Source: Candidatus Marinacidobacterales bacterium
GTDB taxonomy: Bacteria > Acidobacteriota > Vicinamibacteria > Marinacidobacterales > DATDRI01
Assembly: GCA_965226495.1 (NCBI GenBank)
Contig: OZ245365.1
Location: 1,728,001-1,792,000, forward strand
Length of the DNA: 64,000 nucleotides
Direction: 5' to 3'
The notes beneath the pieces are model-generated. The model was not told where the DNA came from. It worked only from the letters and a program-made list of their open reading frames with translations, and made no database searches. Both the position numbers and the translations under genes were made by a program. Shown piece by piece: positions 54,003 to 60,147 of the stretch; within the stretch, counting starts at the first letter, position 1; each line of letters opens with the position of its first letter.

Positions 54003-55376
54003 CTAGCGGTCGGTTAGACTCATGGACCCTTCGGTTTGCTTGAACACCTTGCCACCCTTCATCACGAACGTGACTCGAGTCAACTCCGCGATGTCATCGA
54101 GCGGGCTTCGGGCGGTGGCGATAATATCGGCCGACTTGCCGGGTTCGATGGTTCCGATCTCATCCGAAAGACCGAGTAGGGCGGCCGCGTTCACCGTAGC
54201 CGTTCGAATGGCTTCCGACTCGGTCATCCCGATCCGGACGTACTCGATGAGCTCACGCGCGTTGTCCCCGTGGGGATAAACCCCGGAGTCTGTGCCCAGC
54301 GCGACCTTGACACCGGCCTGATGGGCGGCCTTCAACATGACGCGCGGCTGTTGGGGGAGCACGATTTGGAAGACCTTTTCCAACACCTCTGGAGGTTGGT
54401 ATCCCCAAGGGCCGTTGCGGACTTTTTCTTTCGTGTCGCCCACGTATTCGATCAAGTAGGCGGTAGGGGATAGGTAGGCGCCCGTCCGCTTGAAGAGCTC
54501 GAAGATTTCTGGATCTTGATCGGCCCACGTACCATGCTCGATAGAGTCCACGCCCGCGAGCAAGGCCACTTTGATCCCCTCCGCGCCGTGTGCATGGGCG
54601 GCTACCTTGCGGCCCAACCCGTGCGCGGTCTCGACGATGGCGAGCAATTCCGCTTCGGTCAACTGCACGCCAGTACCGGTAGCCACGGCGCTTGCCGCGC
54701 CGCCGGTCACCATGACTTTGATGACATCGGCACCGCGTTTGATCTGCTCCCGCACGGCGCGACGACAGCCATCGGCGCCGTCACAGATCCCACCGCTCGC
54801 CACGACACCTAGCACGTCCGCTCGATAGCCGTGCACGTCGCCGTGCCCTCCGGAAACAGAGATGGTTTCACCGCCGGCCAGAATGCGCGGGCCCGGAACC
54901 TTGCCCTGGTTGATCGCGTTGCGGAGGGCGAAGACCGCATAGCCGGGGGCGCCGACGTCGCGAATCGCGGTGAATCCCGCTTCGAGGGTTTGGCGCGCGT
55001 AGACGGAAGCGTTAAGTGCGATGTCAGCATCGTTCTCGGTGACTCGCTTTAGCTTGGCTCCCGGGCCGGGGTCATGAGTGATGTGAGTGTGAACATCGAT
55101 GAGGCCAGGGAGGACGAAGCGGTCGCGGAGATCAACGAGGGTCACCGTTGCGCTACCGGCATCCAAGGCCGAAGCGTCTACGAACCCAGAGCGGATCTGG
55201 TCAACTTTCCCATCCTTAATGATGATCGTTTGATCTGGTTGGGGCGCTTGGTCAGGACTGGCCAGCAGTTCACCGGCATACAAGAGGGTCCATTCCTCGT
55301 TGGAGCCGGCCGCCTCCGACGAGCGATTCATGCTGGTGAATGACAGACAAAGGCAGGCGATAATGAGGCGCAACAT
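54003..55376 (-). CDS. Metal-dependent amidohydrolase (Xaa-Pro dipeptidase-like)
   Basis: PGLIDVHTH, GADVIK, AAHAHG, SIEHG, GTDSG. Confidence 0.92.
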   Translation of the reverse strand: MLRLIIACLCLSFTSMNRSSEAAGSNEEWTLLYAGELLASPDQAPQPDQTIIIKDGKVDQIRSGFVDASALDAGSATVTLVDLRDRFVLPGLIDVHTHITHDPGPGAKLKRVTENDADIALNASVYARQTLEAGFTAIRDVGAPGYAVFALRNAINQGKVPGPRILAGGETISVSGGHGDVHGYRADVLGVVASGGICDGADGCRRAVREQIKRGADVIKVMVTGGAASAVATGTGVQLTEAELLAIVETAHGLGRKVAAHAHGAEGIKVALLAGVDSIEHGTWADQDPEIFELFKRTGAYLSPTAYLIEYVGDTKEKVRNGPWGYQPPEVLEKVFQIVLPQQPRVMLKAAHQAGVKVALGTDSGVYPHGDNARELIEYVRIGMTESEAIRTATVNAAALLGLSDEIGTIEPGKSADIIATARSPLDDIAELTRVTFVMKGGKVFKQTEGSMSLTDR

Positions 55377-55414
55377 CGTTTCTCCCGGCGACTAAATAGG
55401 AAATCTCTCGTTCG

Positions 55415-56215
55415 TTAAACCCACCATTCAAGGAACGCCGTGCGAACTAAAAGGCCAAGGACGAGAGCAGCCAGTACGCTCGCCAGAGTTCCTACCAAGA
55501 AATACTCCGCGAAGTCCCGATCCTCAAATTCCTTGATACGGATGAGTCCTTTCGCGGCGACAAGAAAGCCGAGAGCGGCGTAGCTACCGAGAGCAACCGT
55601 CAGCAGCATGAGTCCGCGTTCTAGGTTTCCGATCACTCGGCCGCGATTGTACTCGGAAGTGTCGATCTCTTCCGAACCGGCACGAGCCCGAGGAACCGTC
55701 CCAACCTTGTCGAGGATGCCGCGCACGATGTGGGTCGCACCCTGGCCAGCGAATGCCAAAGCGGCGCCCGCCATTATCAAGGGGATTAGACGCTCAGCCG
55801 AGAGCGGGACCCGCATGATCGAGTGTGCGATTCCGAGCTGTGCGTGGCCGACGATAGACCCGGCCGTAACGATGACAAGAATATTGACGCATAGCTCCCA
55901 TTCGGCTTCTGCCTTGATACCTCTCGCGACGAGGAGTCTGCGCCCGAAGGGAAGGATGAGCGCTCCGGTAAGAGTCAGAACCGCCAAGGCGACACCGGGC
56001 AGGCTCCAGCCCACGATTAAGACGGTCACGACGCCGAGCGCCAGGCTCCTGGCGACGACTTGGTAGGTCCATCTTGAATGCTTGTCGAGCGAGGACCGGA
56101 TCTCCTGAAAACCGATCGGATCTCGACCCAGCGCGTAATTGACGACGGACCAAGCGAGGAGGACTTCTGCCAATGCGAGCGTTTCGCTGGGCGAACTAGG
56201 CCAAGAAAAGTTCAT
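55415..56215 (-). CDS. DUF3307-like integral membrane protein
   Basis: Several TM segments; GRVIGNLER...AAKGLIR...EYFLVGTLAS; starts 2 bp after satD. Confidence 0.75.
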   Translation of the reverse strand: MNFSWPSSPSETLALAEVLLAWSVVNYALGRDPIGFQEIRSSLDKHSRWTYQVVARSLALGVVTVLIVGWSLPGVALAVLTLTGALILPFGRRLLVARGIKAEAEWELCVNILVIVTAGSIVGHAQLGIAHSIMRVPLSAERLIPLIMAGAALAFAGQGATHIVRGILDKVGTVPRARAGSEEIDTSEYNRGRVIGNLERGLMLLTVALGSYAALGFLVAAKGLIRIKEFEDRDFAEYFLVGTLASVLAALVLGLLVRTAFLEWWV

Positions 56216-56217
56216 CG

Positions 56218-56922
56218 TTAGTTGTCGTCGGGGTTGTCGTCGGTTGTCGTCCGGTCGGCACTGCCCAGCATCTTCAGCGCCGCCCGCCAGCCCGTTTCGG
56301 CGAGGAAGTATTCTTCCCAGCCCATTGCTCCTACGTGATCGCTAACCGCCTGTTTTGTGATTTCGAGCATTTCCGCGACTTCAGTCTGCGTCTTGCCTTG
56401 CCTCAGTATCACCGCAACCTCACGCTGCCTTTCCGTCATGTCGGATCGATGACGATGCAGCACGCGGGCGAAGCCATTGAGGATTTTGTCGCCTGGGTCG
56501 CTGAAGCCAAGGAAAACCCCGCCGTTCCAGCCCTTCTTCGCCGCCTTGGTGATCGCTTCGCGAGCTCGATGGAAGGCTGGCCCATCCATGCCAATCGCCT
56601 CTGGCCGCAACGGGGTGTAGATCGTGCCAAAGCCAATCCCGAGTCGAACACCGACATGGGCGAGCTTCGCCTCGAGCTCCCAAGCCAAGTCCGGAATCAG
56701 TTCGGGATCTCGAAGTAAGGCCTGGAACTCGTCCCCGGTCGTAATCACGAAATCCGAAAGTATGGCGGCTCGATAATCCTGGTTGAGCCAGCTAAGGAAC
56801 TGCCGAAGCTCGGCTTGCACCTCCCGGCGGTCAGGCGGTGATAACTGCCTCGACGCCACGAGATCTCCAATGACGGCGGTGACGGGATTCGTAGGAGGTG
56901 CCTGCGAGCCGCTTTTCGCCAT
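56218..56922 (-). CDS. satD: SatD family protein (nucleotide-cyclase-like domain plus C-terminal HTH)
   Basis: IGDLVASR, GDEFQ, RLGIGFG, DGPAFHRAR; TERQRE...TQTEVAEMLEITKQAVS. Confidence 0.88.
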   Translation of the reverse strand: MAKSGSQAPPTNPVTAVIGDLVASRQLSPPDRREVQAELRQFLSWLNQDYRAAILSDFVITTGDEFQALLRDPELIPDLAWELEAKLAHVGVRLGIGFGTIYTPLRPEAIGMDGPAFHRAREAITKAAKKGWNGGVFLGFSDPGDKILNGFARVLHRHRSDMTERQREVAVILRQGKTQTEVAEMLEITKQAVSDHVGAMGWEEYFLAETGWRAALKMLGSADRTTTDDNPDDN

Positions 56923-56976
56923 GACTCATCCTCGTAAGATCAAATGTAACAATAGATTACGCTCATTTTTTAGTGA

Positions 56977-57087
56977 GTCAAGTGTATTAACTTTACTATG
57001 ATGAAGACAAGTTAAAAAGGCTTACTTTTTTCACGATAGTCAACTTATAAAGCTTTACTTTTGATTTGTCAATCTTTTTAGCTTTAC
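56977..57087 (-). promoter_or_regulatory. satD promoter overlapped by four 20-bp imperfect palindromes
   Basis: Minus strand TTGACA (57072-57067)-17 bp-TATAAG (57049-57044); G(T/A)CAA-N10-(T/C)TTAC boxes start at 56977, 57006, 57039 and 57068. Confidence 0.8.
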
Positions 57088-57104
57088 ATACTGTGGGCGC
57101 AGGA

Positions 57105-57691
57105 TCATCGCAGGCCGTCCTCACCCTTGATATCGGAGGCCCCGAGGCCGCCTACGCGTTCGTGGATTCTGGGTCCTATGGCCATGGCCAGGACGAGCAC
57201 CATTTCATGAGAGCGGGGTGCATCCGGCACGCCGACTTCCATGGCGTCGAAATGGCTGCGTACGTAAGCGGCGTTGATGTGACCGATGGGAATGTCGATC
57301 CTCGCGCCGACACCAGCCACTTTTTTGCTCGAAGGAACGATCGCCTTGGCGCCGCCCAGGACCTCGCGCATCCCGTAGCCGCCCGGAACGTGCCAAAGGG
57401 CACCGTGCTCGAGCTCACCGGCTTCGCCGACGATCGTTCCCTTGCCGTAGCCATCGATGGCTGCCGGATCGGCTCCGAGAGTGTCGATGAGTCGCCGTGA
57501 CATCTCGAGTCCTAGCGGCTTGAGGGCTTCCATCATCGCCGTGATCTCGGGTTCGTACCGCCCCGCGTATGGGTTCTTCACGACCGCGCAGATCGCGCCC
57601 GGCGGCGCGGTTTTTCGGGAAGGGGACCTCCGTCGTGAAGGATCTCCTCGAGGAGGACGATAAACTTTCGTACCTGAATCAGTTTTGACAT
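57105..57691 (-). pseudogene. Amino acid synthesis (DUF1185) family protein, frameshifted near 57598
   Basis: MSKLIQVRK... in one frame; VKNPYAGRY...GELEHGA...YVRSHFD in another. Confidence 0.8.
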
Positions 57692-58621
57692 TTAGATCCT
57701 AACTAGCAATGGGAGAACTTCTCTGTGTCGGCCGGCGAGAGAAAGCCGTGCTGCCTCGATCATCCCGGACAGTCTCATGGCTTCGGCTCTCTCGGCTCCG
57801 CGGTCCAGGGCCTCTTCGACCTCACTGTCGCCGAGTGCGCCGACCGAGGCCGTGACCAATCGGTCCCCGAGATCGCTGTCGGGATCCAGCTCCAGGGCCG
57901 GAACGCGCTCGATGGAAGGATGCTCCGCGTTAACTGCGTTTTCGATGAGCGTTGCCGCGACATCCGCGGCGGTGGCGTTCTTCGCTATGACCGTGACCGA
58001 GTCTGCGACGCCCAGTGACAAGCTACGTCCGCCCTGCCCACTCGTCGCGATGCCACGCACCGGCATGTCAGCCGTGATGGTGATGGCTCCGTCCAGCATC
58101 GTCCCCGTTATTCCCTCTCCCTCCGGGCGTATGGCCGTCAAAACAGGTTGTGCCATGGAGCGAAGTGGCCAGCCGGCGGGTGAGGGTACCGGTTGCGTGA
58201 CGAAGCCGGTTTCGAAACTCCGTCCCGGAGAGAGAAACAGCGCAATATCTCCACCATTGTTCACGTAGGCGCGCTCGAGGTGCCGATCCGCGACCAGTGC
58301 TTCGAGGACCTCTTCCGCGACGGCACCCGCGACCGCCGCCATCGGAGTTACGAAGACATTGCGGTGCGGCCACACCGCGGCAACCATGCGCTTCGCGGTT
58401 GGCCCTTGGACCTGCGGCCGTTGGTCTTCGACTTGTCGGCGCAGTGTGGGGAGTTCTTCTACGAGACCGGGAAGGATCGTTTCGAAACGCTGCCAGGCCT
58501 GAGCGTACGCACCGTCGACGTCCCTAGCATCACCGAATGCCTCGAGAATGAGATCAATCGGTCCATGCTGGAAATGCCATCGGCGTCCATCACGAAGCTT
58601 GGCTCTCTGGGGACCCTGCAT
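57692..58621 (-). CDS. UPF0280 (ApbE-like) family protein
   Basis: QHGPIDL, TPMAAVAGAVA, NNGGDIA, ATSGQGGRSLSLG. Confidence 0.88.
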   Translation of the reverse strand: MQGPQRAKLRDGRRWHFQHGPIDLILEAFGDARDVDGAYAQAWQRFETILPGLVEELPTLRRQVEDQRPQVQGPTAKRMVAAVWPHRNVFVTPMAAVAGAVAEEVLEALVADRHLERAYVNNGGDIALFLSPGRSFETGFVTQPVPSPAGWPLRSMAQPVLTAIRPEGEGITGTMLDGAITITADMPVRGIATSGQGGRSLSLGVADSVTVIAKNATAADVAATLIENAVNAEHPSIERVPALELDPDSDLGDRLVTASVGALGDSEVEEALDRGAERAEAMRLSGMIEAARLSLAGRHREVLPLLVRI

Positions 58622-60147
58622 CTAGTCGTCTTAGTTGGCTTAGTTGGCTTAGTTGGCTTAGTTGGCTTAGTTGGCTTAGTTGGCTTAGTCGGCTCCGTTC
58701 GATTGGGGATGGACCAGGGCCATGGGTTCTTCTCATGCCACTCGGTGACTTTGACTCCCGGCTTGGTAACGACTTCTTCGAGTCTTGTCACGCTGTCCAT
58801 GTGTCCTCCGAGGTCGCGGTAGTCGTCGAGACGGAGCGTGAACTCGATAGGGGAGACGAGCGCCGGAGTCGGCACGTAACCGAAGGAGTTGTCGGGCATC
58901 CGCGCGACGTCGACCATAAACGTGATGCCGCCGCCCGGCCAAACATAAACCGGCGCGCCACCGCACGTGACCCGTGTCAACGCATCCCGTACCGAGCGCG
59001 TCAGCTTGACCGGGTTCTCGGTAACGCCGGCGCGTAGGCTACCTCCCGCTCCCGCCATATAGAGGACGGTGGCCAGGGCTGGCTCGCAATTTTCTCCGAT
59101 ACGCTCCACGACCTTCTTAAGCGGTTCGGGCATCGCCGCAGGAGTCGGCTTCAGGTCGTCATCGAGAACGAAGTACTCGGCGTCTTCTCCCGTCGTCGAG
59201 ACCATGAAGAGACGAAGCCCGGGCCGCGCGACTTTGGGATCGATGTTCTTGATGATGACGAGCGGATCCTGAATGTCCGTTCCGCCCCAACCCGTACCTG
59301 GTTTGGCCACTCGAAAATAGCGGCCGGCGGTCGACTTGTATCCGCGAACACGGATCCCGGCGAGCGGAATGTCGAGAAACCGTCCCGCCTGATGTTCGGT
59401 AAGGACCCCGGTGATGTGATCATCGACCACGATCACCTCGTCTGCGTGCCCGAGCCACTGTTTGGCGAACATGCCGATCGTGGCCGAGCCGCAACCGACA
59501 CGCATGCGCTCTTCCTGGACGTCGTTGATGACCGGCGCTTTCCCCGCCTGGATCGTGAGCTTCGCTCCTTTGTCGACCTCTAGGTCCATCGGTTCTCGAT
59601 TGCAGAGCGCGAGCAACATGTCACAGGTGGCGACGCCCTCTTCCTTGGAACCTCCCGTGAGGTGACGGACCCCACCCAAGGCGAGCATCTGAGAGCCGTA
59701 TTCGGCCGTCGTGACGTGTCCGACCTGCTCTCCCTTGCGCCGGACGGCAGACTGCTCGGGTCCGACGAAACGGTCGGTATCGATCTTCACTTTGACACCG
59801 CAGTAGCTAAAGATGCCTTCGGTCACAACGGTGACCATGTCGACGCCCTCGTGCTCGCTGGACACGATGAAGGGCGCAGGTTTGTAATCGGGGTAGGTGG
59901 TGCCGGTGCCGATTCCCGTTAGGAACTTCGGCGCTTCAGCCAGAAGCTCGCCGTCCCAGTCCCGGGCAAGGAAGGGAACCATCTTGCCCTTATCGTCGAT
60001 CGTTTTCTGAGCCACGACGATCGGATCCGTCCGCGTGAGCACCCCGTCAACGTTGCCGTAGCGGTCGCAAGCGCCGGTGCGGCCGGGCCGGATCCGGCAA
60101 AGAACCGGACACGCATCACAGGTAATGGTCTCTTTGTTGGAGCTCAT
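58459..60147 (-). CDS. 6-hydroxynicotinate reductase-like protein (C-terminus extended through a 9-bp repeat)
   Basis: CDACPVLC...C, TTYPDYKPAPFIV, MRVGCGSATIG, WPGGGI. Confidence 0.82.
   Translation of the reverse strand: MSSNKETITCDACPVLCRIRPGRTGACDRYGNVDGVLTRTDPIVVAQKTIDDKGKMVPFLARDWDGELLAEAPKFLTGIGTGTTYPDYKPAPFIVSSEHEGVDMVTVVTEGIFSYCGVKVKIDTDRFVGPEQSAVRRKGEQVGHVTTAEYGSQMLALGGVRHLTGGSKEEGVATCDMLLALCNREPMDLEVDKGAKLTIQAGKAPVINDVQEERMRVGCGSATIGMFAKQWLGHADEVIVVDDHITGVLTEHQAGRFLDIPLAGIRVRGYKSTAGRYFRVAKPGTGWGGTDIQDPLVIIKNIDPKVARPGLRLFMVSTTGEDAEYFVLDDDLKPTPAAMPEPLKKVVERIGENCEPALATVLYMAGAGGSLRAGVTENPVKLTRSVRDALTRVTCGGAPVYVWPGGGITFMVDVARMPDNSFGYVPTPALVSPIEFTLRLDDYRDLGGHMDSVTRLEEVVTKPGVKVTEWHEKNPWPWSIPNRTEPTKPTKPTKPTKPTKPTKPTKTTRCRVPREPSFVMDADGISSMDRLISFSRHSVMLGTSTVRTLRPGSVSKRSFPVS
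58631..58693. repeat. 9-bp tandem repeat (TTAGTTGGC) x7
   Basis: Six perfect copies and one imperfect copy; encodes (TKP)n on the minus strand. Confidence 0.95.

Follow-up and report, generated by a model that had tools for sequence, protein, structure and literature searches.

A divergent satD-satE operon with a candidate private operator array in an acidobacterial genome

The subject of this study is the two-gene operon satD-satE, which resides in a 64-kb stretch of DNA from a Candidatus Marinacidobacterales bacterium (contig OZ245365.1, positions 1,728,001 to 1,792,000; this whole stretch is called the window in the following). The operon is self-contained and constitutes a new, divergent member of the named, mechanistically uncharacterised SatD/SatE family. 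Comparison with satD loci from other phyla revealed a palindromic array of about three operators spaced 28-30 base pairs (bp) apart, which is a new finding; this comparison across loci is the strongest result of the study. Family membership, protein fold, residue conservation, the conserved gene pair and the conserved operator architecture all come from the analysis presented here. On this basis we give an even chance to the proposal that the locus is an autorepressed cassette, in which SatD dimers would sit on three to four operators, a nucleotide in the SatD pocket would tune their occupancy, and SatE, harmful when uncontrolled, would be the sole output. The elements of the operon are:

Positions 56218-56922, minus strand: satD coding sequence, an open reading frame (ORF) of 234 amino acids.
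Positions 55415-56215, minus strand: satE-like membrane protein gene, encoding a divergent DUF3307-family partner, an ORF of 266 amino acids.
Stop 56218-56220, start 56213-56215, minus strand: junction of satD and satE with a gap of 2 nucleotides (nt).
Positions 56923-57104, minus strand: AT-rich leader of 182 nt, spanning from the stop of the AA_synth gene to the satD start.

The narrow gap between the two genes indicates translational coupling, as judged from the sequence. The GC content of the leader region is 0.355 (56900-57099) as against 0.55-0.66 on either side. Two promoters can be read from it. P1 (TTGACA-17 nt-TATAAG; -35 at 57067-57072, -10 at 57044-57049) carries 11 of the 12 consensus bases, and the weak, proximal P2 (TTGACT-16-TAATCT; -35 at 56976-56981, -10 at 56954-56959) lies about 25 nt before the putative ribosome-binding sequence GAGGA. 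The element GTAAAG-N9-TTGAC occurs without mismatch in three copies, all of them within 56977-57087 and none elsewhere in the 64 kb, and a fourth, degenerate copy completes an array with start-to-start spacings of 29, 33 and 29 bp. The sites are imperfect palindromes in which GTAAAG faces CTTGAC (GTAAAG-N8-CTTGAC); O4 matches the other strand with two mismatches. An AT-rich leader with a near-consensus promoter covered by operators had been described in the first-pass annotation, and this description holds in full.

Positions 57068-57087, minus strand: operator O1, GTAAAGCTAAAAAGATTGAC, exact match to GTAAAG-N9-TTGAC; its right half supplies the P1 -35 TTGACA.
Positions 57039-57058, minus strand: operator O2, GTAAAGCTTTATAAGTTGAC, exact match, starting 29 bp after O1 and containing the P1 -10 TATAAG.
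Positions 57006-57025, minus strand: degenerate operator O3, GTAAGCCTTTTTAACTTGTC, 75% identical to the reference copy and starting 33 bp after O2.
Positions 56977-56996, minus strand: operator O4, GTAAAGTTAATACACTTGAC, exact match; its right half supplies the P2 -35 TTGACT.
Positions 56929-56933, minus strand: Shine-Dalgarno sequence GAGGA, 6 nt before the satD ATG.

A small inverted repeat, GTAAT-N5-GTTAC, lies over the -10 of P2 (56946-56960) and shares the GTAA core of the operators; it could be a fifth site of half strength. An Rfam search of the leader returned no family at threshold, and two sub-threshold matches were found in 55300-57300.

Operator arrays of this kind precede satD far beyond the window. 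The comparison set consisted of the satD loci of 80 species, sampled over bacterial phyla and haloarchaea and numbered with the prefix L. Families of three-copy 18-mers were sought in the 150 nt upstream of satD and judged against 40 dinucleotide shuffles in 78 upstream regions; L001 and L006, with too little upstream DNA, and L049, which contains N, were left out. Control regions were taken 1.5 kb upstream (72) and 3 kb downstream (69). A three-copy repeat beating all 40 shuffles was present in 30 of the 78 satD upstream regions, compared with 1 of 72 upstream controls. Both spacings fell within 28-30 bp in 28/78 cases, as opposed to 0/72 and 0/69 in the upstream and downstream controls, and at least one spacing did so in 49/78, as opposed to 11/72 and 5/69. 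Sites that were at least 80% self-complementary were found in 19 of the 78 regions and in one of the 72 upstream controls.

The operator sequence itself is clade-specific, and the sequence of the SatD recognition helix changes along with it. It reads TCACCC-N6-GGGTGA in L017-L022, CAACC-N6-GGTTG in L009, L010 and L013, TTAGCC-N6-GGCTAA in L029 and L037 and GTTCG..CGAAC in haloarchaea, and takes the form of a direct repeat of the TTTTCCGTT type in streptococci. The promoter-proximal operator fills the spacer between -35 and -10 in L019-L022, and the last operator supplies the -35 in L008, L009 and L013, just as in the window. Since SatD is the only DNA-binding protein common to the sampled loci, autoregulation by SatD at a private operator array is the economical reading of these sequences. 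The autoregulation put forward in the first-pass annotation thus draws support both from the repeated palindromic operators of the leader and from the same architecture upstream of satD in other phyla. The operators cover the -35 and the -10 of the operon's own promoter region, and it is therefore proposed that satDE is autorepressed; repression appears likelier than activation.

SatD matches the Pfam family SatD (PF16264) over residues 16-195 with an E-value of 7.3e-26 and 91.6 bits, the cut-off being 29. Homologues numbered 309 at E<=1e-3 among 813 candidates scored, and PF16264 is present in all 120 matches listed; the closest relatives (P0001-P0006) share 85-98% protein identity. The protein divides into two parts, and the helix-turn-helix (HTH) and the two Asp motifs that had been described for it (GDLVAS, residues 19-24; GDEFQ, residues 63-67) were recovered:

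Positions 56503-56883, minus strand: palm domain of SatD, about residues 14-140, class III cyclase/GGDEF-like according to Foldseek, conservation and the order of strands and helices in the AlphaFold (AF2) model.
Positions 56863-56865 and 56731-56733, minus strand: codons of Asp20 and Asp64, within the palm domain.
Positions 56323-56445, minus strand: C-terminal HTH of SatD, about residues 160-200, of the LuxR/GerE / sigma-70 region 4 type according to Pfam, profile and model.

The palm domain also contains R93 and the motif GMDGPxFHxAR (residues 111-121). The AF2 model, calculated from an alignment of 63 sequences (A1), has a mean predicted local distance difference test (pLDDT) of 94.2 and a predicted template modelling score (pTM) of 0.89. 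When it was compared with the PDB by Foldseek, the six matches at E<=1e-3 (from 4.5e-4) were all catalytic domains of class III guanylyl or adenylyl cyclases, with probability 1.00 and template modelling (TM) scores on the target of 0.17-0.55, while the leading cyclase matches, from E 4.5e-4 upward, scored 0.50-0.56 on the target; the cyclase-like fold suspected in the first-pass annotation is thereby supported at the level of the model. Lower in the ranking came many more cyclases, then a GGDEF domain, Cas10/Csm1 and the regulators 9f80 and 3onq_B. Pfam gave no Guanylate_cyc or GGDEF match in SatD at E<=0.01. The cyclase link is one of fold, because a search of PDB sequences with the SatD family profile returned HTH proteins only, namely GerE (1.2e-4) and NarL (4.3e-4). 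Helices of the HTH occupy residues 164-174, 179-185 and 190-200 in the model, and the Pfam GerE match at residues 162-200 reaches 22.6 bits, just below its cut-off of 23.5. No longer or fused form of SatD was found, which is weak evidence, and a search for GGDEF proteins in the window and in the relatives' loci found none. The acidic SatD tail TTDDNPDDN, encoded by 2.9 copies of a 10-nt repeat at 56221-56251, is not conserved among relatives.

Class III cyclases carry one of their two metal ligands where strand 1 ends and the other in the strand 2-3 hairpin. In the SatD model, Asp20 ends the strand formed by residues 14-21, and Asp64 sits between the strands 54-60 and 65-70. Conservation was assessed in 201 sequences, comprising the window SatD, 120 database homologues and the 80 genomic loci. 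D20 is Asp in 194 of the 201, the other seven being N-terminally short sequences with a gap, and D64 is Asp in 198, with Gly in one and a gap in two, so that the two aspartates singled out in the first-pass annotation prove to be almost absolutely conserved. R121, G97, G99 and G114 are present in all 201 sequences and D113 in 200, and S24, R32 and Q36 show not a single substitution. A constraint this strict, upheld at 30-50% overall identity and in two domains of life, argues for a functional nucleotide or metal pocket in the palm domain, as far as sequence conservation can tell.

The product of the second gene is all-helical with about eight hydrophobic helices, in keeping with its earlier description as a multi-spanning membrane protein, and its AF2 model has a pLDDT of 95.1. 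It has no match in Pfam (even at E<=10 and including DUF3307, PF11750), NCBIfam or PADLOC, and the Pfam searches revealed no cyclic-nucleotide-binding domain. Among 8000 candidates scored, 373 homologues were obtained at E<=1e-3, and none of the 120 matches listed contains a Pfam domain. A hidden Markov model (HMM) built from the window partner and these 120 homologues was run against every ORF in the 80 satD loci and detected the Streptococcus partners at E values of about 1e-13. Of 12 partners from these loci tested against Pfam DUF3307, seven scored above the cut-off, one below it, and four had no match. Because the clade profile matches these proteins and DUF3307 is recognised in seven of the 12, the window partner is, judged by its sequence relationships, a divergent SatE/DUF3307 protein. 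A profile search against 1.84 billion representatives of 50%-identity clusters yielded 9,845 SatE sequences at E<=1e-3, of which 2,551 reached E<=1e-30. Foldseek found no usable match for the partner model (best PDB E 0.33 with probability <=0.25, best BFVD E 0.46), and an ESM Atlas search brought up unnamed clusters and DUF3307 leads at 0.79-0.80 only. A prediction of the SatD-SatE complex scored 0.00 (mark 0.32), a value that counts neither for nor against binding.

An alignment of 60 partner sequences (A2) places all invariant columns (G192, G196, E199, R200, Y238, G242 and S246) in the C-terminal third of the protein, where K222, R226 and E237 are nearly invariant as well:

Positions 55475-55651, minus strand: C-terminal module conserved throughout the partner family, residues 189-247, with the motifs NRGRxIGNLER, AAKxLxR and FAEYFLxGTLxS.

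Judged by where Lys and Arg fall in its loops, the protein probably turns this module toward the cytoplasm. In the N-terminal half, where Pfam DUF3307 matches, Firmicute and haloarchaeal partners keep His/Asp motifs within membrane helices (H..DF..Q, H..ID and DQ..H); at the corresponding residues 20-30, 85-90 and 103-112, partners of the window clade, which is of acidobacterial/gemmatimonadal type, have W..NY, ILP and EWE..N. Any metal site that these His/Asp motifs may form appears dispensable for the core function of the partner family.

The two genes travel together. A homologue of the partner was found in 77 of the 80 satD loci, and in the three loci without a match (L010, L012, L050) the contig breaks off no more than about 600 nt from satD. 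The partner lies directly downstream of satD on the same strand in 74 loci, commonly with an ORF overlap of 1 or 4 nt, and chance adjacency is rejected on these numbers. Two loci are arranged differently: in L001 (776-2720) 1.9 kb with only short ORFs separate satD from its partner, and in L079 (5070-5870) the partner is divergent and upstream of satD. In L035 (4997-6534), from a metagenome-assembled genome of Sulfotelmatobacter, satD is broken into three fragments and the partner into two, which suggests joint decay.

Clustering of ORFs over the 80 loci gave no third conserved gene. Sampled neighbours are housekeeping genes for pantothenate kinase, biotin ligase, an ABC ATPase and GrpB. Three Chloroflexia loci (L031:5152-5787, L038:5087-5749, L054:5128-5763) carry a divergent gene for a LuxR/GerE-family regulator directly upstream of satD; it was considered as a shared third gene and rejected, matching the SatD profile through its HTH only. 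Scanning of species-representative genomes with a sequence pattern confirmed at least 504 SatD stretches. Public genomes already carry the pair under its names, which the first-pass annotation had overlooked: on a haloarchaeal plasmid, for instance, PGAP calls it 'SatD family protein' and 'DUF3307 domain-containing protein'. The original paper on the Streptococcus mutans sat operon with satD-satE is reportedly that of Kremer in 2001; the family name is 25 years old. A distant 'SatD family protein' on the Agrobacterium tumefaciens plasmid pAt (L082, NZ_CP011248.1 34257-35332) is followed by a gene for a hypothetical protein of 90 amino acids, not by a DUF3307 gene, and is surrounded by antitoxin, HEPN/nucleotidyltransferase and DUF4365 genes; this SatD may have a different partner in a stretch rich in defence and toxin-antitoxin genes.

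In the autorepression model, SatD would be a one-component regulator, in which a palm of class III cyclase/GGDEF fold with a conserved acidic and basic pocket precedes a LuxR/GerE-type HTH. Dimers of SatD would be bound at three to four imperfect palindromes (GTAAAG-N8-CTTGAC) that follow one another at distances of 29-33 bp. The pocket would bind a nucleotide, which it may also convert, and nucleotide occupancy would set how tightly SatD holds its operators. SatE, predicted to be an eight-helix membrane protein with its universally conserved residues turned toward the cytoplasm, would be the only regulated output and is probably harmful when made without control. We infer operator binding by SatD, repression, the nucleotide ligand and the role of SatE in the membrane from the features described above. 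A transposon survey of Streptococcus pyogenes fits into this picture. In the parts of that survey available to us, satD alone qualifies as an 'essential accessory gene', being carried by 178 of 249 genomes (PMC11323703), with an essentiality score of 2 of 2 in vitro as well as in vivo, and the gene with which it forms a two-gene operon has a score of 0 (PMC11323703, supplementary file 1). Such a pattern is expected if the loss of SatD unleashes a harmful partner, the second gene being unconfirmed as satE. The remaining literature mentions of satD are confined to expression tables.

Several points weigh against this model. P1 and P2 are predictions read by eye, and an automated promoter scan lists neither; the -10 of P1 ends in G in place of the conserved final T, which accounts for its absence from the scan, and the -10 of P2 matches the consensus at three of six positions. 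Of the 78 satD upstream regions, 48 fail to beat every shuffle. The correlation between operator and recognition helix tracks phylogeny and is therefore not independent evidence. Operators of the window clade overlap the -35 at about -40, a position that would suit an activator too, and positive autoregulation is therefore possible. The putative equivalence of Asp20 and Asp64 to cyclase metal ligands relies on the strand order of a model and on class III topology from general knowledge. In the available parts of the survey, the S. pyogenes gene that shares the operon with satD is not confirmed as satE, and the satD label there is that of eggNOG and was not re-checked. Finally, the literature searched turned up no study of the biochemistry or structure of SatD or DUF3307, which agrees with the first-pass annotation in so far as it regarded SatD biochemistry as unresolved.

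The autorepression model and its alternatives overlap and differ chiefly in whether SatD forms a product and in how SatE acts. One alternative, which we hold to be unlikely, is a toxin-antitoxin-like addiction pair in which SatE would be a membrane toxin and SatD its antidote by repression, perhaps also by direct binding, with the palm serving for dimerisation or stability only. Like type II toxin-antitoxin systems, satDE is an autoregulated bicistron with the DNA-binding gene first, judging from operators over the promoter region and translationally coupled ORFs; satD and its partner are fragmented together in L035, and S. pyogenes satD, as far as the accessible text goes, is essential yet missing from 71 of 249 genomes, with a dispensable operon partner. 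A toxin-antitoxin-like module had also been suggested in the first-pass annotation, and this suggestion gains indirect support from the S. pyogenes survey, whereas the toxicity of SatE is still presumptive. Both proteins, however, are large for such a system, the genes reside on chromosomes and only rarely on plasmids (2 and 8 of 72,556 records for window and streptococcal SatD, replicons of 200-815 kb), and the pocket of the palm domain is conserved far beyond the needs of a scaffold.

It is similarly doubtful that SatD combines the functions of transcription factor and enzyme, acting as a DNA-bound nucleotide synthase whose product would be read by the cytoplasmic face of SatE as an opening or a 'keep shut' signal. 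If this were true, SatDE would be a new nucleotide-signalling membrane module spread across many bacterial phyla and haloarchaea.

Rather improbable, in our estimate, is a nucleotide second-messenger defence module in which SatD is an active cyclase or synthase and its product acts on SatE, either opening it after infection in the manner of Pycsar and PycTM or constitutively keeping a toxic SatE channel shut in the manner of Hailong HalB and HalA. The class III cyclase-like fold speaks for such a module, both acidic and several basic residues of SatD are essentially invariant, a pattern more in keeping with catalysis than with loose ligand binding, and the conserved charged residues of the partner appear to be cytoplasmic according to its predicted topology. 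The available text on Pycsar describes the pairing of a class III-related cyclase with a transmembrane or TIR receptor (PMC11224242), and that on Hailong reports that loss of the nucleotidyltransferase renders the membrane partner toxic (PMC13434031), an observation that would agree, too, with satD being essential in S. pyogenes. The searches nevertheless did not bear out the Pycsar- or CBASS-like defence function that had been suggested from the sequence. PADLOC gave only weak matches to the HTH region of SatD (best E 8.9e-4, to a CARF-regulator model) and none elsewhere in SatD or in the partner, including the models for PycC-type cyclases of Pycsar and CD-NTases of CBASS; no Guanylate_cyc or GGDEF match was obtained in Pfam, and SatE has neither a cyclic-nucleotide-binding nor any other Pfam domain. 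An enrichment of satD in defence islands was not evident either: the flanks are mostly housekeeping or catabolic, and 14 of the 134 nearest flanking ORFs of satD loci matched PADLOC (E<=1e-8, 12 of 146 references left out), largely through generic UvrD/DEAD helicase, AAA ATPase, TnpB-like and protease domains and with no background rate for comparison. By tblastn, the window SatD was found in 2 of 72,556 plasmid records and in 0 of 50,697 phage records, streptococcal SatD in 8 of the plasmid records, all of them replicons of 200-815 kb, and streptococcal SatE in no phage record. None of this carries the signature of a mobile defence island. Moreover, an HTH on the enzyme is not mentioned in the available portions of the papers on Pycsar and Hailong (PMC11224242, PMC13434031), and the tight operator architecture of satDE speaks for control of transcription as the principal switch.

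Equally improbable is a logic of the TetR/TetA type serving ordinary metabolic housekeeping, with the palm as sensor of a small molecule whose export, import or modification would be the task of SatE: a putative local repressor with operators of its own does stand beside a single polytopic membrane protein, the Firmicute and haloarchaeal His/Asp motifs could form a metal site in the membrane, and the whole of SatD also aligns, in Foldseek, with two regulators that combine a GGDEF-like domain with an HTH, 9f80 (probability 0.93) and 3onq_B (0.85), but SatE matches no transporter or enzyme fold (best PDB E 0.33, probability <=0.25), the His/Asp motifs are lost in the window clade whereas the predicted cytoplasmic C-terminal module is universal, and the gene neighbourhood is not conserved and therefore implies no pathway.

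In the window, the operon is flanked by genes for amidohydrolases, an AA_synth protein, a UPF0280-type protein and a molybdopterin-binding subunit. A two-gene operon amid unrelated catabolic genes is what had been described from the sequence, and all of the sequence features named there were found again. No terminator-like site was found within 55200-57300, and read-through from satE into the amidohydrolase gene 38 nt downstream is therefore possible. Farther upstream of satD, a 9-nt tandem repeat of 7.2 copies (58630-58694) specifies a PTKPTK... run close to the C-terminal end of a 562-residue ORF (58459-60147), and this ORF shares about 160 nt with the beginning of the UPF0280-type ORF (57692-58621); probably one gene end is mis-called, or the repeat varies in length.

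SatD and SatE form a large family pair for which the literature searched offers no mechanism. The analysis provides three handles on it: a near-invariant cyclase-type pocket, a private operator array with a period of 28-30 bp across phyla, and a partner fold unlike any solved structure. In combination, they could account for an S. pyogenes satD that is essential in its carriers yet missing from other genomes, and they could reveal a new coupling of nucleotide chemistry to a membrane protein.

Among systems of known structure or function, class III cyclases (3et6, Ma1120 5d0g, Rv1900c 1ybu) come closest to the palm domain, with a Foldseek probability of 1.00 over 119-141 columns at a root-mean-square deviation of 3-5 A. 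In the model, SatD has an Asp ending strand 1 and an Asp in the hairpin of strands 2 and 3, the two putatively equivalent to the cyclase metal ligands, as well as an RxGxGxG strand and a conserved motif starting the next helix. It differs from them in that identity is 14-24%, the Pfam Guanylate_cyc domain is not recognised, the region after strand 4 is shorter and an HTH is fused to the palm; catalysis and a head-to-tail dimer are putative. The regulators Rv2242 (fragment 9f80) and BAD_0249 (3onq) resemble SatD in possessing a palm-type domain followed by an HTH (237-244 columns, probability 0.85-0.93), whereas the overall TM score is low (0.24-0.26) and SatD has no Pfam match to those families. 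We take both to be PucR/CdaR-type regulators with non-catalytic GGDEF-like domains.

Pycsar (PycC with PycTM or PycTIR) likewise encodes a class III-related cyclase-like protein beside a membrane protein, according to the available part of its description (PMC11224242); satDE departs from it in lacking a PycC match in PADLOC, a cyclic-nucleotide-binding domain in the partner and a visible defence-island context, and SatD has an HTH and its own operators. In Hailong, as far as the accessible text reports, the HalB nucleotidyltransferase keeps the HalA channel shut, and loss of the enzyme from this two-gene operon is toxic (PMC13434031), comparable to the situation in S. pyogenes, where satD is essential. 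PADLOC does not match satDE outside the HTH, SatE matches no solved membrane-protein structure, and the resemblance is confined to the logic. The nearest relative remains the satD-satE pair of S. mutans (PF16264 plus PF11750). The window partner is set apart from it by missing the Pfam DUF3307 model and by belonging to a clade without the Firmicute and haloarchaeal His/Asp motifs, whereas SatD passes its Pfam model and the gene order, with an overlap of 1-4 nt or a short gap, is the same.

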